Under the pieces are notes generated by a model, which saw nothing but the letters and a program-made list of their open reading frames with translations, had not been told where the DNA came from and did not search any database. From a virus (Duplodnaviria; Heunggongvirae; Uroviricota; Caudoviricetes), in the IMG/VR virus record IMGVR_UViG_2740892232_000009: 18,870 nt of DNA; one strand, given 5' to 3'. Below, piece after piece: positions 1 through 17,878 of this stretch (its first letter is position 1; the number at the start of each line of letters is the position of its first letter). Made by a program: the position numbers and the translations under genes.

Positions 1-717
1 TCAAGATGCGGGTGTGAGCACCTGAAAGTGATCGTTAATTCGGGATGTCAGTGAGTCCGCTATATTCGGCAGGGTCTGGTTAAAAAAGACAGATATTGCT
101 TCCCTGAACTCTCGCGTACTGCTGAAGTAGCGATTATTCCGGGTATGTTCGTTCATTAATTTCCACATTCTTTCTATCGGATTCAGGTTTGGACTGTAAG
201 GGGGAAGGTAATGCAGCCTGATATTTACCACTTCCGCCCAGTCTTTCACTAACTGTGAACGGTGGTAACCTGCTCCATCCAGAATAACGTGGATTTTCTG
301 GTTATAATCAGGATAAACCTTTCGTATCTCATTGAAAAAACGGGATACATTATATTCATTAATGGTTTTATATTCGCAGATTAGCGGTGACGTCAGTGCT
401 TTCAGATTCAGCGCCCCCATGATATTCAGGCGTGTGCGGCTGCCTGTTGTTTTTACTGCTTTTTTCTGGCCTTTGCGTATCCAGCCATAGCTGATTTTAG
501 TGGCCTGAGTCGGATGGACTCCATCAATAAAAAGAATCGGCTCATCACCCACAGTTGTTTTCAGTTCCTTATAGTATTCAATGAATTGCCTTTGTTTCTC
601 TTCACTGAATTTATGGGGGACGCCTGACGGTTTTTTGTAGGTGACACCATTACGATGCAGCCACTTATTCATCCCCGGAATGCTGAAAATGATGTTCCAT
701 GTCCGGGTGACAAACGC
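1..717 (-). mobile_element. IS630-family insertion sequence fragment: DDE transposase ORF, C-terminus complete (stop at 1-3), N-terminus lost in the assembly gap
   Basis: ORF 1..672 translation has IS630-type DDE spacing (DGVHPTQ ... LDGAGYHRS ... NPIERMWKLMNE). The frame stays open upstream of the annotated Met as far as the N-run at 718, so the true N-terminus is missing. Family call is from recalled motifs, not a search. Confidence 0.8.
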
Positions 718-727
718 NNNNNNNNNN
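718..727. other. Assembly gap (10 N), unknown true size
   Basis: Run of n characters at 718-727; both flanking ORFs are truncated at it. Confidence 0.99.
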
Positions 728-1846
728 CGCCGGGTTCGCTCCTGCCGTCAACAGCCAGCAGGCAAAAGTATGCCGCGTATGGTACGGATTACGGCGGCGA
801 ATACCAGCACGTTTTACTGCTGCATTCCATCTCGCACCCAAACTGCTTACCGAGTAATAAGGTTTCTGTTTTCCGTTACACACTCTGGGCATGAAAACAA
901 AATGCAGTTTTTGCTTTTCGGTTCTGCCGTACTCCCGATGATAAAAAGTGATTTCGCTTTTGCGATGATGCCCGGTCAGTTTGTATTGCTCCTTCAGTGC
1001 TTCAAGAGCAGGCTGCAGTAGTGTTACTGTCCGGATCCCGGCATTTGTTTTTGGGGGACCGAACATATCAAGTATCGTCAGGTTTCTTCTGACATTCACT
1101 ATTCCCTTTTCGAGATCCACATCCTCCCACGCCAGAGCTGCCAGTTCCCCGTGACGAAGTCCTGAGTAAACGGCAAATTTCCACAAGTTCTGGCTCTGTC
1201 CTTTTTCACTTTCCATTAATGCATTGAATTCTGTTTTAGATAACGGATCAGGCTTTATTCTGTTTCGCTGTAATTTTTTTACTCCTTCAAATGGTTTGGT
1301 TGATATAAATCCCGACTGATACGCAAAACGCAACAGCGAACAGAGCAGGGCGATATAGTTATCAACTGTGCGCACGGTTCTTCCTTTTTTGTTGGATCTT
1401 GGATTATCCAGGTAAAGCGTTTCTCCATGCAGCAGTTCATTCCGGTAGTTTAAGATATCGCTATAACGAATATGTGATATCGGGGTACTTTCACAAATTA
1501 TTATTCTGAGTGTTTTTAATTGTGATTTCGTTTTCTTCATTGTGTTTGTTGTTAACTCTGTCTCTTTAATTTTTGTCCAGATATCACAAAGTTCTCCGAA
1601 CGTTTTTATGACTCTCGTTGTCACCATTTTTGCCCCAGTGCTGGACTGGGGAAAACGTCTTAAATACTCAAATTCACCGGAGTTTATTTCATGAACTATC
1701 AGCGATCTTAAATTTCCGGCCTTTTTAATATTACTGTTTGTAATCTCCCAGCCTTTTAATGTTTCCCGACATCGTTTTCCTCGAAACATGAACCAGATGC
1801 GAATGTATCTACCTCTAATCTCGACACCTGTTGGTAATTTAGACAT
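728..1846 (-). CDS. intR: Tyrosine-family phage integrase, 3' end missing in gap (about 373 aa present; catalytic C-terminal segment not seen)
   Basis: ORF 665..1846 translation begins MSKLPTGVEIRGRYIRIWF and carries the conserved HTRHTFACWLL box before the X residues. Everything after the gap in that ORF is read-through into the IS. ATG at 1846. Confidence 0.85.
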
Positions 1847-1847
1847 A

Positions 1848-2063
1848 TCATGAGTCTTTGATAAACTGATTTATCTTTGGATAGTTGTACCAGATAATCC
1901 CTCGCTTACTGTCTGGCTTCCCTAAAGGAGATACTCGTTTGAAGTGGAATCCTTCCACCCAACAGTTCTGGCGGTATGCTTCAATTTGTCTGGCCCCCAG
2001 ACCAGTGCGAAGCATCAGGCCGTATTCAACCATCCACTCTTCATTAAAGATTACTTGTGCCAT
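1848..2063 (-). CDS. xisR: Excisionase-like small DNA-binding protein (71 aa)
   Basis: Translation [44 protein letters not shown]... ATG at 2063 preceded by GAGGTG with 5-nt spacer. Stop lies immediately beside the int start, the usual xis-int arrangement. Confidence 0.8.
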
Positions 2064-2162
2064 CGCATCACCTCTGGCAGGCGCCAATGTTAGACTGAAA
2101 TTGACGCCCGATGTTGATTATTAATAATCAGCTATGAAGTTTTAATTTGAATACAATGCAAT

Positions 2163-2351
2163 TCACGAGGACTGAAGTCTCTCGCAATTAAAATTTATCA
2201 GTTTTACTTTCTGCTCTCTGGAAACGGCTGCTTCTTTTTTACCTGAGAGCATTTTTTCGCATTCTGATTTCGTTAGTTTAGATTTTGAATATCTTGTCCA
2301 GTTAGTAGGAGTGCCACCTTCCTTTTCAATAGTGGCGGTAATTTTATACAT
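2163..2351 (-). CDS. ydaC: Small Rac-prophage protein of unknown function (62 aa)
   Basis: ATG at 2351 directly preceded by GGAGGTG on the minus strand. Sits between xis and ralR as in Rac. Longer ORF-track start at 2423 would overlap ralR. Confidence 0.6.
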   Translation of the reverse strand: MYKITATIEKEGGTPTNWTRYSKSKLTKSECEKMLSGKKEAAVSREQKVKLINFNCERLQSS

Positions 2352-2538
2352 GAACACCTCCATTATTATTTCCAGTGGTTCGTTTATTCCATCTTTCGAG
2401 TGCTTCTTTTTCACTTCCACCATAACCGGTTCGGGATTCGCATCCGTTACACTTCGCTCGGTAATATCCTGAAATGGCTTTCACCGTTACTGATGGACAA
2501 CCACAAAATGGACATGGTTTAACATTGTCATATCTCAT
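2344..2538 (-). CDS. ralR: Restriction-alleviation protein (Lar/RalR family, 64 aa)
   Basis: Translation MRYDNVKPCPFCGCPSVTVKAISGYYRAKCNGCESRTGYGG..., with the CPFCG and CNGC zinc-ribbon-like Cys pairs. ATG at 2538. Confidence 0.85.
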   Translation of the reverse strand: MRYDNVKPCPFCGCPSVTVKAISGYYRAKCNGCESRTGYGGSEKEALERWNKRTTGNNNGGVHV

Positions 2539-2594
2539 AATTTTTCTCATAAAAAATATTTCAAGTTGGCGGTGCATTACACCGCCAGACTGAA

Positions 2595-3404
2595 TTATTC
2601 CTCTGAATTATCGATTACACTGTATTCCCCGGTTAATACAGAGGAATCTGCAGGATCGATTGTCAGTGGTTCCTTTTCATCCATTGATACTGCACGCTGG
2701 ATCTCAATTGATACGGGCAGATATTTGAACAGGCGACGAATAGCTGTTTTCTTTGCCATTTCTTCCCAGTGAGTTACCCACGGCCCGTTATTACCAGCTT
2801 TACTCTGGCTGCGCACCAGCTCAATCTGTCTGCGCGTCATAACTTCAAACTGAGTACCTCCGTCTTTCAGTCTTGCGACAGCATAGACGTGGGTAACCGG
2901 GGCATCTTCGTTTTCTCCTGGGCGGTGTATTAACTTTTCATCAAGGCCAAATTCGAAATTAAATTCGTCACCTTCACGGACAACACGGGCTGACAGGCTG
3001 GCGATTTGACCTGAACGGCGAGCCAGATCAATCATGCCGCGATAGCCAATGATTAGCTGAACGTTTTTTTTACCGCTCTTTTCGTTTTTATTACCAAAAG
3101 GCAGTAAATATGCATGACCGAGGGCGCTACCTGGCTCAAGTCCGAGCTGTGAACACTGTACGATTGCACTGACAAAACTCATAGTGTCACAGTTTCCTAA
3201 CGCCGGAACTTTACGAATTTCTGTGGTGGCGATACGGATCATACGTTCAGCCGTCATATGGCGTGGAAGAGCTGCTGCCAGTTGCTCTTTCATTGATGGC
3301 TGGTTAATAAAACTAATCACGTCGTTATTTTTAATTGCTGCTGGTGCACGGTTTCCCTGAGTTTTTTGCAGATCGGCTTTTGCGATTGGTGGTTGCTTAG
3401 TCAT
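2595..3404 (-). CDS. recT: RecT single-strand annealing protein (269 aa)
   Basis: Translation from [28 protein letters not shown]... Start ATG 3402-3404 overlaps the recE stop (3397-3399), indicating translational coupling. Confidence 0.95.
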
Positions 3405-5997
3405 TTGCATATTCCTTAGCCCAGCGGGGCAGTGATAACGTCTTAATAGCTGGCCATTCATCGGTATTGAGGCAGTCAGCCAGGGTTCGCAGATTGCGGT
3501 GATATTCCAGCTGACCTGCCAGTTTTGCTTCTTCGCCCATCATGAAAATTTCAACCGGATAACGTCCGCATTCAATAGTTGTGCTGGCAACCAGAAAAAC
3601 GAAAGTTGGCTGCACTCCAAACTGTGCTTCATAACCGTCACTGTAGAATGCATCCTGAACGTGATAGCGGTAGTCGTAATAAGCGGTTTTGAATCGTTGA
3701 ATATCCGCCGTAGTTTTCACGTCCATGATCCAGTGAAATTCAGGGATAATTTTGTCCGGACGGCACCGACACAAAATTCCTGTTTCAGGATCTTCCCAGT
3801 AAATTGATGATTCAGCGTGTCCGGCGCTTTCAACAAGCCATTGCCCCAGCGGCAAAGCCATAACGCTTTGATACATCAGTTCAATTTTCCGGCCTTCTTC
3901 CGCAGTGATAACCATTTTTCCTGTGCTTGCGCATTCCATCAGAAACGCTTTCTCTTCTTCTTTTCCGGCGTTTGTACGGCGGTTAAATTCAGGTGCTACG
4001 ATAAAGCGGTTACTGAATTCTTCCGGTTCAAGTACCCGGCAGTGGAAAGCAGTTCCTAAATCGAGCGTTTTTGTCTTTGTGGTGTCCACGGGGGCATTTT
4101 TACGCCACAAATACAGTGCCGGAGTATCAGCAATGTCATCGAGCTGAGACTTACTGACACCGGGACCTGCGTGGTAATTCTCATTCGAAATTCCGTAATA
4201 AATACCTGGCTCTATGTCTTCTACGATTACGGGATCTGCGACTTCGCCAGTTTCATCACTGCAATCGCGATGCGGATCGCTGCCAGCATTCTCATTGTGC
4301 GGATGTTCAGCGCCTTCCATTTCCTCCGGATCATTTTCCTTAGCTTCAACCTGATTCTCTTCATCGAATGTTTCCTGGTTTGTTGCGTCGCCCATCACCG
4401 CACCACAGTCAGGGCAGTTATCCCCGCCAGTCTGGCCGTAGGCATTGCAGGCTATTTCCGGTTCCTGTTGCACTACTGGCTCAGGTTGTTTCATATCCGG
4501 GCTGGTTTTTTCCGTTTCTGGCTGGTTCTGGTACACAGAATCGCGAGTCTGGATCCCCTTAACCCATTTCGGATCGTTCGGGTCGCTAATTCCGTCAACA
4601 AATTCACCACGTGATGCAGCAAGCAATTTATCGGCATCGACAGGATTTTTTGATGGAATGTTTTTCCGGGCTTCATGGAGTTCTGCCCGCAGTTCCTGAT
4701 ATTTCGCATCAACAGAATTTACCTGTGACTGAGCATCCAGCGGCTGCGTGTCCTGATGATGTTTAGTTGCGTCCGGTTCCATTGTTTCAGCCTCTCCCTG
4801 TTCATCTGCCGTTGTTCCAGATGGTTGCAGTTTTTCTTCATCATCCTGTTTTCCTTCTTCTGTTACTCGCTGCGGCATCGGGGCAGAGGAGCGACCGCAG
4901 GCAATATCCACGATTTCCGGATCAGGGTTGGCATGATCGGTTTCAGTCAGTACTTTGTTCAGATATTCAGTGACGTGCGCGGGGATGACCTCGATCCCAA
5001 TTGGTGCTTCTTTTACGGACGCAACCACGATGGCGCGGGAATAATCCAGCCCGCCAGGCATGGTGATGAATTTGTCGCGGAAAACAGAAAAGGGCGGTTT
5101 ATTTTCAGCGATAATTTCCTCAATGCGTTTAGCGTGTGCCGGATGAAGGTTATAGATGTCCAGATCCATTGAACGGGCCAGTACGCCAGTGGCTACGTCG
5201 CGCGCCAGTGACGTCAGATCGTGTACGAAACCTTCGCCGCGATCGGTGAGGTTTCCGCCGCCAGCATTAGCACCGGAAGCCGTGCGAGTGATGTGTGAAA
5301 CACGATTACCCTTCATCCACTCTTTTGTCAGCAGTCCTCGATCGGTGTAGTCAGCGTTCAGGTATGCTTCGAAAAAAGCAGTTATCAGTCCCAGGTTTGA
5401 ATTACCAGGATTAGGGAAAACTTTGTCAGTGTCACGAACCAGTTTGTGGAGTTCGCGAATTTCCAGCGGGTCGAGCAGGCTGGTTTTGTGGGAAACAGCC
5501 AGGGCAGTAACAGCCGGTAGTTCTTCAGCCCGAGCAATGTGTAATGCCTGGAGTCCGTCGCGTGAAACGTGCGTTACCGGTTTTTCGCTGCCGTGTTGAG
5601 CAAGCCAACGAATGGGCAGTTCCTGGCCAGAAATTGGGAGTAGCATATTCTCCTCAATCTCAGTCATGTCTTCGCCGTTGACGTTGGTATTGCCTTGATA
5701 GTGAGCGTTGTCTGGTGCTGCTCCCGGTTTTAGTTCCCATGTCATGGAGTCTTTGCTGAGTTGATAGCGTTCACTCCAGGTAAAATCGATCTCACCTTCA
5801 GCGGGCAGGTCATTAACGACAGGAAAATTCGTGGCAACAGCTTTAAAATAGCTGCTCAGTTTTTTACCTGACTTAACGATCAGGTAGTCCAGAGTGGCAC
5901 AGGTCGATTCAAAATCGTTGCTTGCCCACAGGACGACGTCAGGTTCACCGGATGATTTTTTCGCTTTCCGTAACAGGAAGAGTGGTTTTGTGCTCAT
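3397..5997 (-). CDS. recE: RecE exonuclease VIII (866 aa)
   Basis: 866-aa ORF with acidic low-complexity middle and a C-terminal nuclease region, directly upstream of and overlapping recT. Matches recalled Rac RecE in length and sequence. Confidence 0.95.
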
Positions 5998-6098
5998 TGT
6001 TTTTTAACCTCAACTCAGATTAAAATTCGTTTTGTTCAGTGAATGATCTTGCCGGATACACACTGTTCATAGCCTGCGCCATACGCAGGCTATTTCTT

Positions 6099-6374
6099 TC
6101 AGATTTCACCTTTTAATTTCATTGCAATTAGAGTTGCCAGAAATTCGGCTTTTTTTTCTGCGGGCAGATTCTTTCCGATATGCACCAGGCACATTTTTTT
6201 GACACCTTCATCAAGTGTTTTTACGTTGCCTGATGGACCATCGATATCAACCACAGTGAATGGGGTTTCTTTATTTTCTGTTTTAATTACGTAGCCAATG
6301 CGCTTTCCTTCCAGATTCACCTCGTGAACAATGTCATCGGTAGTTACAACAGTGGCTTCATAATTGGTAATCAT
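6099..6374 (-). CDS. racC: RacC (91 aa), function unknown
   Basis: Translation MITNYEATVVTTDDIVHEVNLEGKRIGYVIKTENKETPF... ATG at 6374 preceded by AAGGAG. Confidence 0.85.
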   Translation of the reverse strand: MITNYEATVVTTDDIVHEVNLEGKRIGYVIKTENKETPFTVVDIDGPSGNVKTLDEGVKKMCLVHIGKNLPAEKKAEFLATLIAMKLKGEI

Positions 6375-6448
6375 GTTTTTCTCCTTAATTAAGGTTGAGC
6401 GAATACCTGCCATTTCTGGCATAAATTCAGTTTCGAATAGTCAATTAA

Positions 6449-6619
6449 TTAAAGTTCATGTGCCATCTGGTCTTTTTCGGCACAAGCTTCACTGCAATAT
6501 TTTCTCGGTTCGTCTTTTGATAAAATCCCGTGCATGAAGTGAAGCATTCTTTCAATAGCTTTGCTTTCTTCAACGTCTTTTTTGCAAAGGTGGTAAGCAC
6601 ATTTTATTTTCTTAGTCAT
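6449..6619 (-). CDS. ydaE: Small Cys-rich protein (56 aa), absent from the ORF track because it is under 60 aa
   Basis: Hand translation of the minus strand gives [56 protein letters not shown]. Start ATG 6617-6619 overlaps the kilR stop (6619-6621) by one base (ATGA). Stop TAA at 6449-6451. Confidence 0.75.
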   Translation of the reverse strand: MTKKIKCAYHLCKKDVEESKAIERMLHFMHGILSKDEPRKYCSEACAEKDQMAHEL

Positions 6620-6840
6620 CACCATGACTCCGCCTTTACAGGTAAACCATCACGACCGAGGAAGACTTTAATCATGCGGTCAGTAATGCATGTTTTTGTG
6701 GTCAGGTTACGAATATATAGTTTTCGCTTTTTAATATTGTTTGCCGAGGCAATATATGTCCGGCCTTCATGAAGAACATAATCGCCAGGAGTCACACACT
6801 GACGTGGTATTTCATCAGTTCCGAAGTGATGTGCAATCAT
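6619..6840 (-). CDS. kilR: KilR cell-division inhibitor (73 aa)
   Basis: Translation [46 protein letters not shown]... ATG at 6840 with GGAG 6 nt upstream; an in-frame ATG at 6852 is an alternative. Confidence 0.85.
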
Positions 6841-7281
6841 AATTATCTCCATTTTTACAAATGAACTTTGTTGATGCGGTGCCTGGTGCCTCCAGGTGAC
6901 TGCAACCAGTTAACAATTACAGTCGGCTTTCCCACCCAAACCAATAAGGACTAACATGACTTTTAACTGTGCCACGTGCGCTTAGCCGCATTCACCGCAT
7001 CACAAAATTCACTTTAAAAAGGGCGGACATCAGCCGAACTTCAAGAAAAAAACTGATGCCGCCAGGACTACACACAGTAATGTCGTTATTTACAACCGGA
7101 GGCGCACTCCCACCATTTAAATTTAACAGACAAGACCGACTCTTTATGGATATCGGAAATGCGCCTTCGTGTTGTGCCCGGTTTTATTTCACCACCTCCG
7201 GGCTTCGGTGGTCTCGGCTATACCCCTACAGCGAGAGCTTGTGTTAACATTTCAATACCCTTACAGTTGAGAGTTATTGAT

Positions 7282-7770
7282 ATGTTGGATGTATTTACTC
7301 CATTGTTGAAACTTTTTGCTAACGAGCCACTCGAAAGACTTATGTATACGATTATCATTTTTGGTCTCACTCTCTGGCTGATACCGAAAGAGTTTACTGT
7401 CGCATTCAATGCTTATACTGAAATACCTTGGCTCTTTCAGATTATCGTTTTTGCCTTTTCTTTCGTGGTCGCCATTTCCTTCTCAAGATTGCGAGCACAT
7501 ATTCAAAAGCATTATTCATTACTACCAGAGCAACGAGTATTGCTTCGTTTATCTGAGAAAGAAATCGCTGTATTTAAAGATTTCCTTAAAACAGGAAATC
7601 TTATTATCACTTCTCCTTGCCGTAACCCGGTTATGAAAAAATTAGAACGGAAGGGCATCATTCAACATCAGAGTGATAGCGCAAACTGTTCTTATTATCT
7701 CGTCACCGAAAAATACTCCCATTTTATGAAGTTATTCTGGAACAGCAGGAGTAGACGTTTTAATCGTTAG
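7282..7770 (+). CDS. sieB: Superinfection exclusion protein B (162 aa), membrane protein
   Basis: Translation from MLDVFTPLLKLFANEPLERLMYTIIIFGLTLWLIPKEF..., with hydrophobic N-terminal segments. ATG at 7282; the longer ORF-track start at 7159 is an unsupported upstream extension. Confidence 0.85.
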   Translation: MLDVFTPLLKLFANEPLERLMYTIIIFGLTLWLIPKEFTVAFNAYTEIPWLFQIIVFAFSFVVAISFSRLRAHIQKHYSLLPEQRVLLRLSEKEIAVFKDFLKTGNLIITSPCRNPVMKKLERKGIIQHQSDSANCSYYLVTEKYSHFMKLFWNSRSRRFNR

Positions 7771-7922
7771 CTTACTGTGTGCTTCTCCAACCATCGGCGC
7801 GCACCAGTTTCGGTTTTAAATGTTTTGCTTTTGGTATACGTCATGGCAGTGAACGTTCCATCCTGGTTGGGGAACACGCCGCACACCAGGGATTCGTTGT
7901 TGCCGAGGTCGATTTTTTGCAT
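7767..7922 (-). CDS. ydaF: Small protein (51 aa), absent from the ORF track
   Basis: Hand translation gives MQKIDLGNNESLVCGVFPNQDGTFTAMTYTKSKTFKTETGARRWLEKHTVS. ATG at 7920-7922, stop TAA at 7767-7769, convergent with and overlapping the sieB stop. Confidence 0.65.
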   Translation of the reverse strand: MQKIDLGNNESLVCGVFPNQDGTFTAMTYTKSKTFKTETGARRWLEKHTVS

Positions 7923-7932
7923 TTTGCGAATC

Positions 7933-8067
7933 TCACATCTTGTTGCTACGTATAGCGACTTCTGCCTGCCAGAGATCCCAGTCGTTGCTGCGTAAAGCCT
8001 GCACAGCCTGGTTGTAAGTGATACCGCAACAATCCATCAAATACTGAACTACTTCGTAATGCACCAT
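7933..8067 (-). CDS. ydaG: Small protein (44 aa), absent from the ORF track
   Basis: Hand translation gives MVHYEVVQYLMDCCGITYNQAVQALRSNDWDLWQAEVAIRSNKM. ATG 8065-8067 preceded by GGGGAGAGATAAG on the minus strand. Confidence 0.65.
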   Translation of the reverse strand: MVHYEVVQYLMDCCGITYNQAVQALRSNDWDLWQAEVAIRSNKM

Positions 8068-8234
8068 CTTATCTCTCCCCTTAACGCCGGGTGGCGGAAC
8101 TAACTGCTGCACTGCAAAATTTGAATCCCGCCGTCATGTTCATACGCCTCGGGCTGGCTACTTAACCCCTGACCACTGCCTGGTAACTCGAAGTATTGCC
8201 CTGCGTTCTGTGGGGCGGGGTGGGTTGGTAGGTA

Positions 8235-8276
8235 TATAATGTACTTTGTGTTCATTGTTGTAAAGTACTTTAAGTA
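8235..8276 (-). promoter_or_regulatory. Leftward pL-like promoter candidate with two operator-like palindromes (O1 8240-8252 GTACTTTGTGTTC; O2 8264-8276 GTACTTTAAGTAC)
   Basis: On the minus strand: -35 TTTACA (plus 8258-8263), 17-bp spacer, -10 CATTAT (plus 8235-8240). O2 is a perfect 6+1+6 palindrome; O1 lies in the spacer. The two sites start 24 bp apart. Confidence 0.5.
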
Positions 8277-8354
8277 CATTCTGTGTGTAAAAAAATGAGA
8301 TGGGATAAAGTGAAGCACAAACCCGGAGGGGGACGCTACCGGATTTATGCTGGT

Positions 8355-8774
8355 TTAAGAGGCTTTTTGTTTTTTCTTTCGTGCTAACTCTTCGTAAATT
8401 GCATTGTACTTCTGTTTTTTCTCCTCAAGAGTTTTTAAAAGTTCATCTGTCTCACTGTCAGGGAGCTCGTCCAGAAGGTCAATGATGATTTTTTGTCTTG
8501 GATTTAACTCCTGATAGAAACGTACCTGTCCACTTTCTTCTGTATCCTCTCCCAAAAGATAGGTTGGTGTTGTTCCAATGAGTGTTGCTAATTCCCTTAA
8601 TTTCTCTCGGCGAGGAATTGTTTCGCCATTAAACCATTTGCTAACCGCTTTTGGTGTTAATTTCATTCGACGGGCAATTTCTGCCTGCCTTCCATGTTGT
8701 TCATAACCAGCGTTTTCACAGGCTAGCGCAAGCCTACTGGCGAACTCTTTACGCGCTTTATCTTCATGAACCAT
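8355..8774 (-). CDS. racR: Prophage repressor, XRE/Cro-CI-type helix-turn-helix, no peptidase domain (139 aa)
   Basis: HTH-like segment QAEIARRMKLTPKAVSKWFNGETIPRREKLRELATLIG. Occupies the cI position, divergent from ydaS. ATG at 8774. Confidence 0.75.
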   Translation of the reverse strand: MVHEDKARKEFASRLALACENAGYEQHGRQAEIARRMKLTPKAVSKWFNGETIPRREKLRELATLIGTTPTYLLGEDTEESGQVRFYQELNPRQKIIIDLLDELPDSETDELLKTLEEKKQKYNAIYEELARKKKQKAS

Positions 8775-8853
8775 AAGTTCAATGATATTCGCTCTTGAAT
8801 GTACTGTCAGTTCTGTTATAGCATGTACTCAAAGTTCACATTGTGAGGGTGAT
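8775..8853. promoter_or_regulatory. Divergent racR / ydaS control region with two operator-like sites (O3 8801-8813 GTACTGTCAGTTC; O4 8825-8837 GTACTCAAAGTTC)
   Basis: Same half-site pattern (GTACT-N3-AGTWC) and same 24-bp spacing as O1/O2. Leftward promoter candidate: -35 CTGACA (plus 8805-8810), 17 bp, -10 TATCAT (plus 8782-8787), which would start transcription at or beside the racR ATG. Confidence 0.5.
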
Positions 8854-9108
8854 ATGAACCAGAAAACACTTGAAGATGTAATCAAAACTGTTCGCGTTTC
8901 TGTTGTGGCCGACGTTTGTGGTGTCAGCCAAAGAGCAATCTACAAATGGATGGATAACGGAAAATTGCCTCGCACAGAATATACCGGCGAAACAAATTAC
9001 GCTGAAAAAATCGCTCATGCATCAAACGGATTATTTTCTGCCGATGCAATTTTAACTATTGGCAAAAATAAAACTACTACGAAAAAGCTGATGGGAGTTG
9101 ATTCATGA
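8854..9108 (+). CDS. ydaS: Cro-like HTH protein in the cro position (84 aa from the ATG at 8854)
   Basis: ATG at 8854 preceded by GAGGGTG. HTH-like segment VADVCGVSQRAIYKWMDNGKLP. The longer start at 8782 would leave no room for a promoter beside racR. Stop overlaps the ydaT start (ATGA at 9105-9108). Confidence 0.7.
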   Translation: MNQKTLEDVIKTVRVSVVADVCGVSQRAIYKWMDNGKLPRTEYTGETNYAEKIAHASNGLFSADAILTIGKNKTTTKKLMGVDS

Positions 9109-9527
9109 AAATCAAGCATGAGCACATCGAATCAGTGTTGTTAGCCCTGGCTGCTGAAAAAGGGCAGGCATGGGTAGCCAATGCCATTACTGAAGAATAT
9201 CTGCGCCAGGGGGGCGGCGAATTGCCCCTGGTACCAGGCAAGGACTGGAACAATCAGCAGAATATCTATCACCGTTGGTTGAAAGGTGAAACGAAAGCGC
9301 AAAGGGAAAAAATTCAGAAACTGATCCCTGCGGTTCTGGCAATCCTTCCGCGCGAGCTGCGTCACCGACTCTGCATCTTCGATACCCTGGAACGCCGTGC
9401 ATTACTGGCGGCGCAGGAAGCGTTAAGTACGGCAATTGATGCGCATGATGATGCAGTCCAGGCCGTTTACCGGAAAGCGCATTTCAGCGGCGGCGGGTCT
9501 TCCGACGATTCTGTCATTGTTCATTAA
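9105..9527 (+). CDS. ydaT: YdaT (140 aa), co-transcribed with ydaS
   Basis: Translation MKIKHEHIESVLLALAAEKGQAWVANAITEEYLRQGGGELPLVPGKDW... Start overlaps the ydaS stop. Confidence 0.85.
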   Translation: MKIKHEHIESVLLALAAEKGQAWVANAITEEYLRQGGGELPLVPGKDWNNQQNIYHRWLKGETKAQREKIQKLIPAVLAILPRELRHRLCIFDTLERRALLAAQEALSTAIDAHDDAVQAVYRKAHFSGGGSSDDSVIVH

Positions 9528-9539
9528 GCAAAAGTTTCC

Positions 9540-10397
9540 ATGCTGTTTGTGCTTATTCTAAGCAACCGGGCAGCATCATACGGGGCAATTATGGCCGCAT
9601 TACCATACATGCAACTGTACATAGCTGATTACCTGGCTGACACCATGCATTTGTCAGCAGAGGAGCATGGTGCGTATTTGTTGCTGATGTTCAATTACTG
9701 GCAAACAGGAAAGCCAATACCTAAAAACAGGCTGGCAAAAATTGCCCGTCTGACTAACGAGCGATGGGCTGATGTTGAACCATCCTTGCAGGAGTTTTTT
9801 TGCGATAACGGCGAGGAATGGGTGCATCTTCGGATTGAGGAAGATCTGGCATCAGTCAGGGAAAAATTAACCAAAAAATCAGCCGCAGGAAAAGCATCTG
9901 TTCAGGCCAGAAGAAGCAGAAAGGAAGCAGATGTTCAAACAAAACAAGAGAGAAATTTAACAGGTGTTCAAACAGATGTTGAAGTGGTGTTTGAACATGA
10001 TGTCAACACAAAGGCAACTAATAAAGATACAGATAAAGATCTAAAAAAAGATCCCCCCCTAAATCCCCCCCGGGGGAATCGAGGTGTCAAAAAGTTTGAC
10101 CCTCTGGATATTGCTTTGCCGAACTGGATTTCTGTCTCGCTTTGGCGTGAGTGGGTTGAATTTCGCCAGGCATTGCGTAAACCGATTCGAACGGAGCAGG
10201 GCGCTAACGGGGCGATACGGGAGCTGGAAAAATTCCGCCAGCAGGGTTTTTCACCTGAGCAGGTGATTCGACACAGCATCGCCAATGAATACCAGGGCTT
10301 GTTCGCGCCAAAAGGTGTTCGACCTGAGACGTTACTCCGACAGGTTAACACCGTCTCGTTACCGGATAGTGCGATCCCGCCAGGCTTCAGGGGGTAA
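9540..10397 (+). CDS. ydaU: YdaU-like replication-module protein (285 aa), function not established
   Basis: Long ORF directly upstream of the DnaC-like gene. Alternative start ATG at 9591 has a slightly better upstream G-run. Acidic/basic low-complexity middle (KDTDKDLKKDPPLNPPRGNRG). Confidence 0.7.
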   Translation: MLFVLILSNRAASYGAIMAALPYMQLYIADYLADTMHLSAEEHGAYLLLMFNYWQTGKPIPKNRLAKIARLTNERWADVEPSLQEFFCDNGEEWVHLRIEEDLASVREKLTKKSAAGKASVQARRSRKEADVQTKQERNLTGVQTDVEVVFEHDVNTKATNKDTDKDLKKDPPLNPPRGNRGVKKFDPLDIALPNWISVSLWREWVEFRQALRKPIRTEQGANGAIRELEKFRQQGFSPEQVIRHSIANEYQGLFAPKGVRPETLLRQVNTVSLPDSAIPPGFRG

Positions 10398-10403
10398 CTG
10401 ACC

Positions 10404-11150
10404 ATGAAAAATATTGCGGCAGGCGGCATTCTTGAACGTATCCGTAGACTGGCCCCGCCACATGTAACCGCCCCATTCAAAACGGTAGCGGAGTGGCGCG
10501 AGTGGCAACTTTCCGAAGGCCAGAAACGTTGTGAGGAGATCAACCGTCAGAATCGTCAGTTGCGGGTGGAAAAAATTCTGAATCGCTCTGGCATCCAGCC
10601 ATTGCACCGCAAATGCTCGTTTTCGAATTACCAGGTGCAGAACGAAGGGCAGCGATACGCGTTGAGTCAGGCGAAATCCATCGCTGATGAACTGATGACC
10701 GGGTGTACAAATTTTGCGTTCAGCGGAAAACCTGGTACCGGGAAGAACCACTTAGCGGCAGCTATCGGGAATCACCTGCTGAAAGACGGTCAGACAGTGA
10801 TTGTGGTTACCGTGGCTGATGTTATGAGTGCCCTGCACGCCAGCTATGACGATGGGCAGTCAGGCGAAAAATTTTTGCGGGAACTGTGCGAAGTGGATCT
10901 GCTGGTTCTTGATGAAATTGGCATTCAGCGCGAGACGAAAAACGAGCAGGTGGTACTGCACCAGATTGTTGATCGCCGGACAGCGTCGATGCGCAGCGTG
11001 GGGATGCTGACAAACCTGAACTATGAGGCCATGAAAACATTGCTCGGCGAGCGGATTATGGATCGCATGACCATGAACGGCGGGCGATGGGTGAATTTTA
11101 ACTGGGAGAGCTGGCGTCCGAATGTCGTCCAGCCAGGAATTGCGAAGTAA
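10404..11150 (+). CDS. ydaV: DnaC-like AAA+ helicase-loader / replication protein (248 aa)
   Basis: Walker [11 protein letters not shown] and Walker [10 protein letters not shown] are visible in the translation. Position matches the lambdoid P/DnaC-like gene. Confidence 0.85.
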
Positions 11151-11172
11151 TTTTTACCGGGAGAAAAATTTA

Positions 11173-11934
11173 ATGGAGACTGTTTTTGACGCACTGAAAG
11201 CAATGGGAAAAGCCACATCCATAGAACTTGCTGCGCGACTTGATATCAGTCGTGAAGAAGTGCTGAACGAACTATGGGAACTGAAAAAGGCTGGTTTTGT
11301 TGATAAAAGCGCGTACACCTGGCGTGTGGCTGATAACAACGTTCAGCAGGAACAGCCAGCGCAGGCAGAACTGCCGGAAGAAACCACCACAGCAACAGTA
11401 GCGAAAATCTCAGAGTGCGATTTAACCGCGACGATTGAACAACGCGGACCACAAACGGCTGATGAGTTGGCTACATTGTTCGGTACCACATCACGCAAAG
11501 TGGCTTCAACGCTGGCAATGGCTATCAGCAAAGGTCGTCTGATTCGCATTAATCAGAACGGTAAATTTCGTTACTGCATACCGGGTGATAATTTACCAGC
11601 AGAGCCGAAAGTTGAATCGGTAGCGGAAACCGATGGTAAAGCCTTTCCTCAGCCAGCAGGTGTTGCGTTACCAGTACAGGAAGCTGCAACACAGGAAGAT
11701 ATTAAAACAGAAACTGTGGCTGATATTGTGCAGTCGTTGCCATCGTTTACTGAAACGCGAGCGGATGACCTGGTTTTACCATCGCTGCATATGGCAAACC
11801 GCGAATTGCGTCGGGCGAAAAGTCATGTCCAGAAGTGGGAGCGAGTCTGCGCCGCGCTGCGGGAGCTGAACAAGCACCGGGATATTGTTCGACAGATTAC
11901 GGATTCTTCCCGCCGTATTGTATCGGAAAAGTGA
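11173..11934 (+). CDS. ydaW: YdaW-like protein with repeated HTH-like segments (253 aa from ATG 11173)
   Basis: Translation [43 protein letters not shown]..., with a second similar segment [36 protein letters not shown] lies 9 nt upstream of the ATG. The ORF-track start at 11122 overlaps ydaV. Confidence 0.65.
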
Positions 11935-11949
11935 TTGCCGGAGGCGCTT

Positions 11950-12279
11950 ATGGCAAAAGTATTTACACAAGAAGGGCGGGAAAAAATTAAAGGGCAGGTT
12001 GTTGAACTCGTGCGCCATAGTGGGCGCGAGACGTTACGACAACTGGAAGCTAAGACAGGTGCGACAAGATATCTGATGAACCTTCTTGCCAGAGAATTGG
12101 TTGCGAGCGGTGATGTATACAACTCTGGTTACGGGTTATTTCCCTCAGAACAGGTTCGTAAAGACTGGCAAAACGCCCGCAAAAAACTATCAAGGGCAAA
12201 GGTGAAGAAACCGGTTGTGGTTGATCCTGACCTTATCTGGTCATTACCTGACGGAGAAATCCGTCGCCTTAGTCTTTGA
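11950..12279 (+). CDS. Hypothetical protein (109 aa) with one HTH-like segment resembling those in YdaW
   Basis: ATG 11950 preceded by GGAGG (11940-11944) with 5-nt spacer. Segment ETLRQLEAKTGATRYLMNLLARELVASGDVY. No family recognised. Confidence 0.55.
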   Translation: MAKVFTQEGREKIKGQVVELVRHSGRETLRQLEAKTGATRYLMNLLARELVASGDVYNSGYGLFPSEQVRKDWQNARKKLSRAKVKKPVVVDPDLIWSLPDGEIRRLSL

Positions 12280-12314
12280 TAATAGGTTTATAATGTTGAA
12301 AAAGAGTCTAATAG

Positions 12315-12347
12315 TTGACATTGTATGAAATATGATTGTTATATAAA
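12315..12347 (+). promoter_or_regulatory. Promoter-like element upstream of the NTPase gene
   Basis: Perfect -35 hexamer TTGACA at 12315-12320, followed 18-19 bp later by an A/T-rich -10-like stretch TTATATAAA (12339-12347), about 35 bp before the ATG at 12381. Confidence 0.45.
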
Positions 12348-12380
12348 ATGATTTTTTTGGATACTGTTTAAGGTAAACAA

Positions 12381-14639
12381 ATGAAACCAGAATACTTAAG
12401 AAAAATAGAATCATTGCAACGTGAGGTTGATGATTTCCATCCAGTGCTAAGAGCGCTTCTACCACGTTTGCCGACTGTTACACATGTTGAATATAAGCAA
12501 GGACCATCAGAAAAAGGTGCTGATTTTGTCATAATTAAACGAGATGAGGCATTAGACGAGGAAATATATATTGGTGTTATTTGTAAAGTTGGAAAGATAA
12601 TTCAGTCAAATAGTGAGGTTGAACGACAAATAGAAGAGTGTCAATTATATCCACGCTTTATTTCTTCTGGCTCTAAGAACATACATTTGAATGAAATTTG
12701 GGTTATTACTAATTCATCGATCTCAAATAATGCTCAAGAAAAAATTTACTTGAAATTCAAATCTACAAATATAAAATTTATAGAGGGTGAAAAAATATGT
12801 TCTTTAATCAGTAAATATTACCCAGAGTTTTGGGATTTCGAATCCATTAATTATGAACAATACTTAACAGATACATTGCAAACCATAAGTGATACACCTG
12901 AAAGCTCTTTTTTTGGTAGTGTTGGCATAAATAACCTTATTGATAGATATGTAAGCAAGGAAGATCATAAAAAACGCAGACACAGGCCGTTAAAACTGTA
13001 TAGTGTTGTGAGAGCCGAGAGATTTATTTTTTTAGAGGGAACCGTTGGCTCTGGGAAAAGTACTTTGCTGAAACAGTTAATTAGAAAAATAAAAGAAGAA
13101 TATTCTTACGAAAAAGACTACATCCTTCCAGTATTTTGTCAATACAAGGATGTTCTAGAAAAAAAACTTAATGTTGAAAATATAATACAAAGTGTGTTAA
13201 GTAAGTACAAAATACAACATGATGGGAATATTTTATTAATTGTTGATTCGGTGGATGAAGTAAAGGAATCACTTGAGGAAAGGCAAAACAACTTCAGGGA
13301 CATTGTAGAGAAAGTATCCAGGAATGATAAAATTCGATTACTAGTTGCTTCAAGAATTATGGATTCTCTTCAGGACTATGAAGTTATCGATCAGATGTTT
13401 GCAAGATACTCGATAATACCACTTAGCACAGGTCAAATAATCGACTTTGTAGATAAAATCTGCAATGACATTAAAATAACAAATAAACTTAAAAATGGTA
13501 TAGAAAAAACACCACTATTTAAGTTCATTCCCAGGACTCCAGTGAGCGCTATTCTTCTGGCAAGAATACTCTCTGATGAGATTAAAGAATTACCATCTAC
13601 AATGACAGAACTATACTCAAAATACAGTGAGATAGTATTGGGACGATGGGATACATCTAAGGGATTATTATCGCAAACAGAATATGATGTAATAAGTAAT
13701 ATATTAGTAGAAATTGCGATATTTATGATGGATAACTCTCTAAACTGCATATCAATTTCAGAAGTGCAGGACATGTTTTTAAATTATTTGGCCAAAAGAA
13801 ACTTGAATGTTGATGAGGACAAACTTTTCAAAAGACTAATTTATCGCAGTGAAGTAACAACAGTTAATGTTAGAAGTAATACGTTCTCATTTCTACACAG
13901 ATCATTCATGGAGTATTTTTACGCTGAAGGACTTAGGAAGCGTGGCCTAATAGACATAAATGATAATATTTATGATATTTATTGGGCAAATAGTTATTTC
14001 TTCTATTTTGGTTTGTTAAGAGACAATGAATATCTTATTGATAAAATTAATGAACTTAAACCTAGTAACGATAAAACAAGATTTTTAAGGTTATTTTATA
14101 ACGGTTCTTTTTATTTGGCTTCATATCTAACTCCGTATAAAAAAATAACGAGGGGAGTCCTTTTATCATATATAGATGCAGGTAAATTATATGTTGATAT
14201 TCTCAAGGGAAATACCGACATCCCGCTGAAGGAGTTTTCACCAGTAGCTCTTCTTTGTATTTTCACAAAGTGTTTAAGTAACAATTACGCATATGATTTT
14301 TTCAAATCTGCCTTGGAAGACTTGTCAGTTCAAATTGAACAATATGAGGAAATTGGTGAACATATTGATTATGCACGTTTCTTCATAGCATCAACACTGA
14401 ATGAGCTCGGGGATAAATCCGCATTTGATAGCTTAGTGGAAAAAAATAAATTAGGTGTTTTGATTAATTTAGGGATAACTCACGTTACAGACGACTCAGG
14501 GCTACTTAGCACTACGGTTGATAAGTACCTGAAAAAATTCAATAAAAAAGTACGAAGTAACCATGATATGTCTAATTATATATCTAAGTTATATGAGGAA
14601 TCTACAGGTTCCTTACGTACAAACCTGCAAATTCAATAA
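12381..14639 (+). CDS. STAND / NACHT-type P-loop NTPase (752 aa) with N-terminal restriction-endonuclease-like (Mrr-like) region; candidate antiphage defence protein
   Basis: Walker A LEGTVGSGKST (residues 218-228, nt 13032-13064). Walker B with the NACHT acidic pair LLIVDSVDE (286-294). Sensor-1-like LLVASR (320-325). N-terminal GPSEKGADFVII ... EIYIGVICK resembles the Mrr catalytic motifs. Gene is visibly AT-rich relative to its flanks. Confidence 0.7.
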   Translation: MKPEYLRKIESLQREVDDFHPVLRALLPRLPTVTHVEYKQGPSEKGADFVIIKRDEALDEEIYIGVICKVGKIIQSNSEVERQIEECQLYPRFISSGSKNIHLNEIWVITNSSISNNAQEKIYLKFKSTNIKFIEGEKICSLISKYYPEFWDFESINYEQYLTDTLQTISDTPESSFFGSVGINNLIDRYVSKEDHKKRRHRPLKLYSVVRAERFIFLEGTVGSGKSTLLKQLIRKIKEEYSYEKDYILPVFCQYKDVLEKKLNVENIIQSVLSKYKIQHDGNILLIVDSVDEVKESLEERQNNFRDIVEKVSRNDKIRLLVASRIMDSLQDYEVIDQMFARYSIIPLSTGQIIDFVDKICNDIKITNKLKNGIEKTPLFKFIPRTPVSAILLARILSDEIKELPSTMTELYSKYSEIVLGRWDTSKGLLSQTEYDVISNILVEIAIFMMDNSLNCISISEVQDMFLNYLAKRNLNVDEDKLFKRLIYRSEVTTVNVRSNTFSFLHRSFMEYFYAEGLRKRGLIDINDNIYDIYWANSYFFYFGLLRDNEYLIDKINELKPSNDKTRFLRLFYNGSFYLASYLTPYKKITRGVLLSYIDAGKLYVDILKGNTDIPLKEFSPVALLCIFTKCLSNNYAYDFFKSALEDLSVQIEQYEEIGEHIDYARFFIASTLNELGDKSAFDSLVEKNKLGVLINLGITHVTDDSGLLSTTVDKYLKKFNKKVRSNHDMSNYISKLYEESTGSLRTNLQIQ

Positions 14640-14650
14640 TAAATAGATTG

Positions 14651-14685
14651 TCACATTGAAGGTAACGTATCGACCTTCAATGTGA
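14651..14685 (+). terminator. Perfect 13-bp inverted repeat (TCACATTGAAGGT / ACCTTCAATGTGA, 9-nt loop) 11 bp after the NTPase stop; possible terminator
   Basis: Arms at 14651-14663 and 14673-14685. The downstream tract is only moderately U-rich, so intrinsic-terminator function is uncertain. Confidence 0.4.
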
Positions 14686-15007
14686 TGATTATCCTCTTGA
14701 TAATATAGCTTAAGCTACTTTCGACTTTCTGAGACAAAGAGATTGCAGAATGTATCAATCATAGTGAAGCTATCGTAAATGTTCGCACGTCGCTCAAATC
14801 AGATAGTCATATTTGAGTGAACTGCTTACTCAAAATGCTGGTTGGGGCCTGACTTAATACATCTGAAGAAGTGTTGGTTATGTTTGGCTGTTGTGTTCCA
14901 TTGCCAAAGAAAAAATAGATAAACTATACCCAATAGTTGTATTGAATCACTGACGAGACAGCCTCATATTTATCAGGACTGGTGTGCGTCCAATACAGGA
15001 GGTTGTC

Positions 15008-15097
15008 GTGCTGGTTCTCAAATGTGCGCTGGCTATTGCTGCTGTAATAGCAATTTATTGTCTTGCTGTTGTTCTTATGGATCGCCTTTCTGATTGA
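15008..15097 (+). CDS. Candidate small hydrophobic peptide (29 aa), single predicted transmembrane helix
   Basis: AGGAGG at 14997-15002, 5-nt spacer, GTG at 15008. Translation (M)LVLKCALAIAAVIAIYCLAVVLMDRLSD, stop TGA 15095-15097. Promoter-like TTGAAT (14942-14947), 17 bp, CATATT (14965-14970) upstream. Confidence 0.4.
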   Translation: MLVLKCALAIAAVIAIYCLAVVLMDRLSD

Positions 15098-15308
15098 TTT
15101 TATATTGGCGAGGTGACGGGAGTTAAGTAGAATTGCTGCGGGTGCTTGAGGCTATCTGCCTCGGGCATGAACACCAAAGGCAGATAGAGAAAAGCCCCAG
15201 TTAACATTACGCGTCCGGCAAGACGCTTAACATTAATCTGAGGCCAATTTCATGCTTTGCACATGTAGGTTAGCCTCTTACGTGCCGAAAGGCAAGGAGA
15301 AGCAGGCT

Positions 15309-15464
15309 ATGAAGCAGCAAAAGGCGATGTTAATCGCCCTGATCGTCATCTGTTTAACCGTCATTGTGACGGCACTGGTAACGAGGAAAGACCTCTGCGA
15401 GGTACGAATCCGAACCGGGCAGACGGAGGTCGCTGTCTTCACAGCTTACGAACCTGAGGAGTAA
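15309..15464 (+). CDS. hokD: Hok-family type I toxin (51 aa)
   Basis: Translation MKQQKAMLIALIVICLTVIVTALVTRKDLCEVRIRTGQTEVAVFTAYEPEE. AGGAG at 15295-15299 upstream of ATG 15309. An in-frame upstream ATG at 15252 gives the 70-aa ORF-track version. Confidence 0.85.
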   Translation: MKQQKAMLIALIVICLTVIVTALVTRKDLCEVRIRTGQTEVAVFTAYEPEE

Positions 15465-15471
15465 GAGACCG

Positions 15472-15493
15472 GGCGAGGGAGAAATCCCTCGCC
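15472..15493 (+). other. 9-bp stem with GAAA tetraloop (GGCGAGGGA-GAAA-TCCCTCGCC), 8 bp after the hokD stop; 3' structure of the hok mRNA or weak terminator
   Basis: Perfect complementarity read directly from the sequence; no U-tract follows. Confidence 0.45.
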
Positions 15494-15930
15494 ACCTCTG
15501 ATGTATTATGCATCCTCAACGCACCCACACTTAACCAGCTTTGGCGGGTTTATTTTATCTGTAAATATTTTTATAAAAATAATGCCCACGCACAGCATAA
15601 AACAAAAAGTATTACAGATAAAAAAGGAGCGTAATGTGCAGATTTGTTGTTTTCCATATTTACTCACCTTAATATGATTAATCCTGATAGGGTTGTTATT
15701 TCAGTGGTTTTCAAATGAGATATTATGGTGATCTGGTAGATTTGCATAACATTAAAATTTAATTTGTTTAACCGCTTTTAATAATAAGCGTTGTTTTTAT
15801 CCCAGCAATCTGTTGTTTGGTTTTTATTCCATCAATGTGGGGGCTTTACACTGGAATCAGTTTATTTATACTTTATACGTCGGCCTGAACAACTGGCATC
15901 TGCTGCACTGCGCCATCGAGAGATTGACAA

Positions 15931-16530
15931 ATGGCGCATATACAACTGGTCAAACAAACCTCTTCTGGTTTACTTCTCCCGGCGACGCCGGAGAGTTGCG
16001 ATTTCCTGCATCAAATCAAAATAGGTGAGTGGATACACGCAGACTTTAAGCGTGTGCGTAACTACGCATTCCACAAGCGTTTTTTCAAACTCCTGCAACT
16101 GGGATTCGATTACTGGACTCCGGTCGGTGGGGCGATCACGCCTCGCGAACGAGAACTGCTGTCTGGTTTCGTTGATTACCTGTGCGAATCAGTTGGTCGG
16201 GAACACACGCCAGCCCTGAGTGATGCCGCAGAGCAATATCTGAATACAGTTGCGACACGCAGAACTCGGGATACGGCATTGCTAAAGTCGTTTGAGGCTT
16301 TTCGCGAGTGGGTAACCATTCAGGCTGGATTTTACACCGAACATTTTTATCCGGACGGTAGCCATGGGCGTCGGGCGAAATCCATCGCTTTTGCGAATAT
16401 GGACGAAACCGAGTTTCAGCAGGTTTATAAATCTGTTCTGAATGTGCTGTGGAACTGGATTCTGTTCCGTAAATTTTCCTCTCCGGAACAAGTCGAAAAT
16501 GTGGCCGCGCAGCTGCTGGAGTTTGCGTAA
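15931..16530 (+). CDS. nin-region protein of unknown function (199 aa), upstream of and coupled to the YbcO-like gene
   Basis: ATG 15931; stop TAA 16528-16530 overlaps the next start (TAATG). Family not confidently recognised; position corresponds to the lambdoid nin region. Confidence 0.6.
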   Translation: MAHIQLVKQTSSGLLLPATPESCDFLHQIKIGEWIHADFKRVRNYAFHKRFFKLLQLGFDYWTPVGGAITPRERELLSGFVDYLCESVGREHTPALSDAAEQYLNTVATRRTRDTALLKSFEAFREWVTIQAGFYTEHFYPDGSHGRRAKSIAFANMDETEFQQVYKSVLNVLWNWILFRKFSSPEQVENVAAQLLEFA

Positions 16531-16820
16531 TGGTGGATTTACGTAAAGCGGCGCGGGGGCAGATGTGCACCGTCAGAATTCCTGGCTACTGCAATCACGA
16601 TCCGGAAACGTCTGTGCTGGCGCATTACCGACTGGCGGGAACGTGCGGAATAGCGACAAAACCACACGATATGCAGGCGGCGATTGCCTGTAGCTCATGC
16701 CACGATCTAATCGACGGGCGGGTAAAAACCAGCGATTACACCAAAGAAGAATTACGCCTGATGCATGCAGAAGGTGTTTTTCGCACACAAGAAATCTGGA
16801 GAAAGGAGGGATATTTGTGA
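16530..16820 (+). CDS. YbcO-like Cys-rich protein (96 aa), putative metal-binding nuclease family
   Basis: Translation MVDLRKAARGQMCTVRIPGYCNHDPETSVLAHYRLAGTCGIATKPHDMQAAIACSSCHDLIDGR... closely resembles recalled DLP12 YbcO. Cys spacing C13, C21, C39, C54, C57. Confidence 0.75.
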   Translation: MVDLRKAARGQMCTVRIPGYCNHDPETSVLAHYRLAGTCGIATKPHDMQAAIACSSCHDLIDGRVKTSDYTKEELRLMHAEGVFRTQEIWRKEGYL

Positions 16821-17359: not shown

Positions 17360-17444
17360 TTTTTTACGCGTAAACTGCTTCAATTTTGCTACGCTTCGCA
17401 AAGCTGTATCGCGAGGCGAATCAAGCGCAATTAAACTTTAATAG

Positions 17445-17475
17445 AACCCGCCATCAAGCGGGTTTTGTTGTTATT
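17445..17475 (+). terminator. Rho-independent terminator about 85 nt after the Q stop
   Basis: Stem AACCCGC (17445-17451), loop catcaa, GCGGGTT (17458-17464), followed by TTGTTGTTATT. Confidence 0.7.
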
Positions 17476-17620
17476 ATGGTGTGATATAAGAAACGACATT
17501 TAATATTGCCTTCAAAATAAATTTGTTTATATATTGTCGCGTATATTTTAAGTGAAGGTGAAATGTTCACATAAAATAAAAATACATAAATAAATTTACA
17601 TAGCTTGACGCAAAGTGTTG

Positions 17621-17648
17621 TTGCGATTGGAATATTAAATCGTATCAT
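17621..17648 (+). promoter_or_regulatory. Promoter-like element upstream of the tRNA pair (possible tRNA or late promoter)
   Basis: -35 TTGCGA (17621-17626), 16-bp spacer, -10 TATCAT (17643-17648), within a very AT-rich stretch. Predicted start near 17655, at the base of the hairpin. Confidence 0.35.
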
Positions 17649-17655
17649 CGAAAAC

Positions 17656-17721: not shown

Positions 17722-17724
17722 AAT

Positions 17725-17800
<76 letters not shown>

Positions 17801-17803
17801 TAT

Positions 17804-17878
<75 letters not shown>

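Follow-up and report, generated by a model that had tools for sequence, protein, structure and literature searches.

A truncated integrase gene beside a truncated insertion sequence

The left end of the DNA analysed here, a stretch of 18,870 nt that we refer to as the window, raises the question of whether the integrase gene of a prophage has been disrupted by an insertion sequence (IS) or only appears to have been. An integrase gene (int) and a transposase gene, both on the minus strand, are each cut short at a run of 10 Ns. The int piece is located at positions 728–1846 (minus strand) and comprises 1119 nt, or 373 codons; on the basis of nucleotide identity and Pfam matches it corresponds to codons 1–373 of the 411 codons of intR, which encodes the tyrosine recombinase of the Rac prophage. 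In E. coli KK19-02, RefSeq annotates a 411-aa intR between xisR and ttcA, and window 728–1846 matches the first 1119 nt of that gene with 100% identity. Both domain matches are present in the fragment, one to the arm-DNA-binding domain at the N-terminus (Arm-DNA-bind_2, E=9e-26) and the other to the C-terminal catalytic domain (Phage_integrase, E=6e-17, model positions 6–147 of 172). Within the window int ends after HTRHTF...ANPA, with the C-terminal His and the nucleophilic Tyr lying beyond, and the 38 residues that are missing are FIASQMGHETAQMVYEIYGMWIDDMNDEQVAMLNARLS, among which are the GH motif and the candidate catalytic Tyr. The first-pass annotation of this locus, according to which the int frame is lost at the N-run 38 residues early and the catalytic tyrosine region falls outside the window, was correct on both points.

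Adjoining int is an intact copy of the Rac excisionase gene xisR (1848–2063, minus strand; placed using RefSeq KK19-02 coordinates via a gap-free alignment), beyond which are the Rac early genes rcbA, ralR, recT and recE (2142–5997, minus strand; placed using the RefSeq annotation of matching loci together with open reading frames). ttcA is found on the same scaffold. The presence of rcbA, ralR, recT, recE and other such genes beyond xisR identifies this as the left arm of a Rac-type prophage. Consistent with this assignment, the gene order matches that of the Rac prophage of E. coli K-12 (intR-xisR-rcbA-ralR-recT-recE-racC-ydaE-kilR-sieB, in ttcA), the integrase is as in Rac, given its 100% nucleotide identity to a RefSeq-annotated intR, and the two prophages share an integration locus between ttcA and uspF. 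K-12 Rac is a defective remnant of roughly 23 kb; the closest complete relative of the window prophage is ~50 kb and retains lambdoid late genes. The variant in the window also differs from K-12 Rac by the presence of a gene for a 752-aa NACHT protein. (This gene, which specifies a NACHT-domain NTPase, is located at 12381–14639 on the plus strand between a DUF977 gene and hokD, a position at which other Rac variants carry quite different cargo: a BCCT transporter with DUF2254 and LysR, a DNA methylase with HATPase, SIR2_2 with an adenosine deaminase, an ORC/CDC6-like protein, or KilA-N/BstA_C. The position resembles a variable hotspot, perhaps one for defence or moron genes.) A prophage 99.98% identical to window 2381–18870, with 3 mismatches, is carried by a chromosome-level contig of 4.9 Mb (GCA_964044995.1; locus L051), where it runs on into lambda-like late genes (Nu1/GpA terminase, Bor).

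On the other side of the Ns, positions 1–717 (minus strand) contain the 3′ 717 nt of the transposase gene of ISEc40, an IS630-family element, as judged by nucleotide identity and Pfam. These 239 codons, the stop codon at 1–3 included, encode a 238-aa partial transposase that corresponds to residues 104–341 and is 99.7% identical at the nucleotide level, over 717 nt, to the ISEc40 transposase gene (341 aa) of FEX669. Matches to DDE_3 (PF13358, E=7.6e-38) and HTH_33 (PF13592, E=8e-13) are found in the fragment; ~370 nt of the 5′ part of the IS are missing, and ~15 nt of its right end are located just beyond the window edge. The earlier description of this side of the gap as a 5′-truncated IS630-family transposase in the same orientation as int is thus borne out by nucleotide identity, Pfam and strand.

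The gap itself (718–727) is the sole N-run in the window and in the 20.7 kb of the source scaffold that we examined. Both breakpoints are internal to genes: on one side there is nothing but int sequence right up to the Ns, and on the other the IS breaks off partway through the transposase gene. When we looked at the gap for an IS terminus abutting int, none was found on the int side. The gap is best read as a join of two contigs that are not neighbours in the genome, although the window by itself, as the first-pass annotation had stated, is unable to decide between a scaffolding artefact and a genuine insertion. (Note that the source record calls a 393-aa product at window 665–1846, minus strand, equivalent to L044 8872–10053, that runs from int through the 10 Ns into 17 out-of-frame IS codons; this read-through protein is an artefact that is on record in a protein collection.) Stop codons are present at both ends of the window, that of the transposase at 1–3 and that of essD at 18868–18870, so that the window seems to have been trimmed to gene boundaries in the manner of a predicted provirus. 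Just outside it are a remnant int 3′ end and ttcA.

The source scaffold contains a second copy of the int 3′ end

The scaffold that holds the window is CCPW01000051.1 of assembly GCA_000753035.1 (122,008 nt), and the first 10,717 nt of the locus that we extracted from it (L044) are the exact reverse complement of window sequence. What lies around the gap can be read directly from this scaffold. In the direction of int, the Rac genes are followed by xisR, int nt 1–1119 and the 10 Ns; past the gap come the 3′ 717 nt and the right end of ISEc40, a 68-aa ABC-3 fragment and 1.2 kb, and farther on fragments of hok and DUF1627, int nt 1005–1236, a spacer, the core within ttcA, and dbpA. Thus, the right end of the IS is in a permease pseudogene that belongs to a prophage remnant, not in int, and int nt 1005–1119 are present on both sides of the gap. 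The second copy of int sequence (nt 1005–1236) begins 2,294 nt past the gap. The first-pass annotation had suggested that the int 3′ end and attL might simply have gone unsequenced; both are in fact on the same scaffold, ~1.6–1.9 kb past the left edge of the window. (We also sought the attR side of the same clone through a homology search with the 68-aa permease ORF, which returned only other variants.)

The segment that is present twice, int nt 1005–1119, corresponds to window 728–842 (minus strand), and its copies are at L044 9876–9990 and 12294–12408. Only three positions, int nt 1011, 1074 and 1119, separate the two copies, and the assembly shows no difference between them from nt 1120 on. 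Of the three, nt 1119 is window base 728, that is, the base that touches the Ns and the last SNP that discriminates between the copies; from nt 1120 on, the copy on the ttcA side is an exact match to L043, a metagenome contig described below. The odds of an unrelated break falling on one of three SNP positions are ~3 in 1236, and a contig that ends at the last base separating two copies is a signature of an unresolved repeat. We had set aside the int 3′ end as the repeat in question because in complete genomes it occurs in a median of 1 and a maximum of 2 places, but this objection does not hold for the source strain, which has two copies.

ISEc40 occupies a rare site in an old Rac remnant

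ISEc40 was found in 604 of 5,426 complete E. coli genomes, in a median of 1 and a maximum of 3 places per genome. Its sites include (a) the interval between sfaX/papX and iroN, in 146 genomes, (b) a T6SS vgrG island, and (c) an island with fic and a DNA cytosine methyltransferase. Site (a) agrees with the literature, in which ISEc40 is located next to the chromosomal iro locus of E. coli (PMC13533425). A fourth site (d), found in 10 of the 5,426 genomes (e.g. CFE299), is an ABC-permease pseudogene in a Rac remnant beside ttcA. In CFE299, uspF is followed by a "metal ABC transporter permease" pseudogene that ISEc40 interrupts; after a further ~1.2 kb come fragments of the hok region and of DUF1627, then int nt 1005–1236 and ttcA. 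This locus is an old, heavily deleted Rac remnant. The locus occurs without the IS in many more genomes than with it, and in one of 32 metagenome contigs with ISEc40 (L008) the IS is separated by 1.56 kb from the terminal 232 nt of int, which are followed by ttcA and dbpA. (In the Rac variant GCA_050709895.1, trkG and a ParB_N gene are followed, at L050 21321–22259, by two full-length ABC-3 permease genes of 285 aa, which presumably resemble sitC/sitD and are a likely origin of the permease pseudogene in the remnant.)

The part of the source scaffold past the gap is 99.89% identical to the remnant and ISEc40 of CFE299. Relative to the empty site, as present in the complete genome of strain EC28, ISEc40 at the filled site in CFE299 and in the source is inserted within TATATA, which from the sequence looks like a clean transposition into that target. 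The exact position of the TA duplication is not assignable inside the TA run, and the inverted repeats of ISEc40 are imperfect; a TA-rich target is nonetheless what would be expected given the TA duplication that IS630/Tc1-mariner elements typically produce. Compared with ISEc40 elsewhere, the copy considered here is at a rarer site and has only its 3′ 717 nt assembled. ISEc40 joined to intR as in the window was found in none of the 5,426 complete genomes, and no precedent for int::ISEc40 was found among the 32 metagenome ISEc40 loci. Moreover, scanning viral contigs for the gap-spanning sequence and for a 41-mer from the IS side gave no match, and among the genome contigs scanned there was only a partial relative of ISEc40 (96%), in a Klebsiella MAG.

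The IS fragment itself has alleles of more than one kind. It differs from the permease-site copy of CFE299 at window 66, 73, 574, 645 and 683; relative to the site (a) copy of FEX669 it differs at 144 and 298 and is of the site (a) type at 574, 645 and 683. Such a mixture of site (a) and site (d) types suggests a consensus into which at least two copies of ISEc40 were collapsed, and this collapse may have contributed to the break on the IS side. (When window 717, where the IS side breaks off, was compared with other copies of ISEc40, there was no SNP at that position to account for the stop.) We also considered whether the IS was the repeat responsible for the break on the int side and rejected this idea, as ISEc40 is a low-copy element and neither contig ends at an IS terminus.

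Spacer alleles show that the DNA beside ttcA is phage-derived

We compared alleles at int nt 1011/1074/1100/1119 and at spacer and core nt 1252/1257/1262/1291. The window, L043 and KK19-02, which represent the arrangement with an intact int beside ttcA, are of type TGCG at the int positions and CTCA at the spacer and core positions. Other intact ints beside ttcA are of various types at the int positions and have C1252/T1257 in every copy examined. The remnant copies of L008 and CFE299 are AATA and TAAC, and that of EC28 is AACA and TACC, such that all three carry T1252/A1257. The "remnant" copy of the source scaffold is AACA at the int positions and CTCA at the spacer and core positions, where it is identical to L043. 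In other words, the alleles of the source copy are those of a remnant as far as nt 1119 and of the intact-int type from nt 1252, a combination that occurs in no natural remnant examined and that is the pattern expected from a switch of copies between nt 1119 and 1252. The spacer alleles show that the DNA beside ttcA in the source strain is phage-derived, as is expected from IntR-mediated integration at the ttcA core and not from entry of the phage via the IS.

The distribution of mismatches follows the repeats. Over 10.7 kb, the source and CFE299 differ at 12 positions, 10 of which are in two repeated segments (5 in the IS and 5 in int nt 1100–1291), and over the 1,576 nt of unique remnant DNA there are 0 mismatches between them.

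An intact int is present beside ttcA in closely related DNA

Seven contigs share the exact RecE protein of the window prophage, and the one presented here (L043) is a 112.7-kb metagenome contig from a MEGAHIT k141 assembly. L043 is 100.000% identical to window 728–15997 (15,270 nt) and matches the host flank of the source at 7,443 of 7,446 nt, the only mismatches being the three int SNPs; there are no differences between L043 and the source outside the repeat. In L043 a complete 411-aa int is located directly beside ttcA, without an IS. Note that k=141 is sufficient to span the 133 nt between the SNPs at nt 1119 and nt 1252. L043 can serve as an independent surrogate for gap-closing sequence, albeit one that comes from a different sample and might not be from the same strain. 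Both L043 and KK19-02 carry MGHETAQMVYEIYG, the C-terminal catalytic set, which by extension would be contiguous with the rest of int in the source strain. In 10 further Rac variants, moreover, a 411-aa int adjoins ttcA in every case.

E. coli EC28 carries a Rac remnant and a Rac-like prophage in tandem

As a query for the predicted attR junction we used a chimeric sequence consisting of the DUF1627 fragment, the old int 3′ end, the spacer, the core and the right end of a Rac prophage. A full-length match was found in one complete genome, that of E. coli EC28 (NZ_CP049101.1). The order of genes in EC28 is uspF, the permease pseudogene, the DUF1627 fragment, the int 3′ remnant, the core, ynaM, ydfK, pinR and tail genes, and then, through a prophage of ~62 kb, recE, recT, ralR, rcbA, xisR, intR (411 aa), ttcA and dbpA. 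The att core is ~43 nt and overlaps the 5′ end of ttcA. The ttcA locus of EC28 therefore has the layout that we propose for the source strain, an old Rac remnant and a Rac-like prophage in tandem; it differs in that the permease pseudogene is without ISEc40 and the prophage is a different Rac-type variant. (At 14619–25503 of the EC28 locus, L056, an element of ~10.9 kb splits the portal gene of the Rac-like prophage. It contains genes for an integrase, an Icd-like protein, a primase, SSB, a major capsid protein, a head decoration protein and a small terminase subunit, and looks like a phage satellite inside a prophage.)

Discussion

Our findings indicate that the truncation of int is very probably an assembly artefact, brought about by an old remnant and a newer Rac-like prophage in tandem, whose int 3′ copies were collapsed and mis-joined. 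The older generation would be a remnant of ~3 kb in which the split ABC-permease pseudogene with ISEc40 is accompanied by the fragments of hok and DUF1627 and by the 3′-terminal 232 nt of an old int. A strain bearing this remnant, with ISEc40 already in the dead permease gene, would then have been lysogenised by a Rac-like phage at the ttcA core, such that the newer generation would be a complete Rac-like prophage, inserted by IntR at the att core that lies within the 5′ end of ttcA. The order in the source strain would thus be uspF, permease′::ISEc40::permease″, the hok and DUF1627 fragments, the old int 3′ end, spacer, core, the right end of the prophage, the rest of the prophage, xisR, an intact intR, spacer, core and ttcA. 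Of this order, the attR-side junction (old int 3′ end, core and prophage right end) is what we infer from the comparisons above.

Lysogenisation of this kind would duplicate the segment from int nt 1005 to the core. A short-read assembler would presumably be unable to phase the identical stretch and may have attached the remnant copy to ttcA, leaving the prophage contig to end at nt 1119; the scaffolder would then have put the prophage contig before the remnant contig with a 10-N spacer, which we assume stands for a minimal or negative gap. Mis-joins at collapsed repeats in short-read scaffolds have contigs that end at the last discriminating base, a joined contig with the alleles of the other copy, and a short fixed N spacer between sequences that are not adjacent, all of which is the case here. 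The repeat that marks the break, however, is the int 3′/attL segment and not the IS. Thus, of the artefact that the first-pass annotation had put forward, namely a scaffold join at a repeated IS copy with the real int 3′ end lying elsewhere, the artefact and the real 3′ end find support in the intact int beside ttcA in L043, whereas the proposed cause does not stand: what is repeated at the break is the int 3′ end with the attL region, the second copy of which belongs to an older Rac remnant.

We considered whether the sample might instead have been mixed or heterogeneous, containing a clone with only the remnant together with a Rac lysogen of that clone (or cells no longer carrying the prophage), the haplotypes of which were merged by the assembler. 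The join at the Ns would still be an artefact and int would still be intact in the lysogen. Such a mixture would account for the path from the remnant to ttcA in the scaffold, which is the arrangement of a non-lysogen, and for the identity of the L043 and source flanks outside the repeat. That path, however, has C1252/T1257/C1262/A1291, whereas the remnant-only copies examined have T1252/A1257, and a genuine non-lysogen or a cell cured by Int and Xis should retain the old spacer. As a single tandem genome explains everything, with EC28 as a precedent, we regard a mixed sample as unlikely.

More unlikely still is a genuine disruption of int by ISEc40, in which the gap would hide the 5′ 370 nt of the IS and the left end of the IS would be located inside the last 117 nt of int. 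A phage carrying int::ISEc40 could have integrated by homology with the IS already resident in the remnant, in which case the order in the scaffold would be real and the outcome an excision-defective prophage locked beside the remnant. The order and orientation of the scaffold (the 5′ part of int, the gap and the 3′ part of the IS, on the same strand) fit such a disruption, a TATA target is present 3–6 nt past the int breakpoint in intact int, and a break at the nt 1119 SNP would also be expected, as nt 1120 onward would still be duplicated. Nevertheless, the right end of the IS is in the permease pseudogene rather than in int, with the same junction in CFE299. Entry through the IS further predicts an old-type spacer beside ttcA, where the intact-int type was found, and the int of L043 is intact beside ttcA in an assembly whose k of 141 is able to span nt 1119–1252. 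Together with the absence of any precedent in the 5,426 complete genomes or the 32 metagenome ISEc40 loci, these findings speak against the insertion into int, blocking excision, that the first-pass annotation had offered as its second explanation.

Least credible of all is a direct fusion of int nt 1119 to an internal position of ISEc40, through a microhomology-mediated rearrangement or a tandem-duplication or circular junction, in which the Ns hide a few bases and reads would span ...GACAAACGCCGGGTTCGC...; both breakpoints are gene-internal and there is a 6-nt microhomology, AAACGC, at window 710–735 (the IS side ends in ...ACAAACGC and intact int reads ...ATAAACGC across the breakpoint). 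The microhomology, however, was noticed post hoc and is probably due to chance, and the SNP at nt 1119 fully accounts for where int breaks off. Ns would not normally be left in the assembly of a continuous junction, and a second novel junction, from the remnant to ttcA with a spacer of the intact-int type, would have to be real too.

The truncation that was flagged at this locus is almost certainly not real biology. On the tandem reading, IntR would be intact and, together with XisR, could recombine the two cores, excise the prophage and leave the remnant behind; ISEc40, being in a dead gene at the far (attR) end, should not affect excision. Rac, IntR and XisR, ISEc40, and a tandem of remnant and prophage are all already known. 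The case nevertheless calls for caution, as a prophage whose int appears truncated or interrupted by an IS in a draft assembly would be counted as "locked-in" and non-excisable, and here int is almost certainly intact. The cause is a general one: re-lysogenisation of a site at which a remnant of an earlier related phage persists duplicates the int 3′ end and att, and short-read assemblies collapse the duplication.
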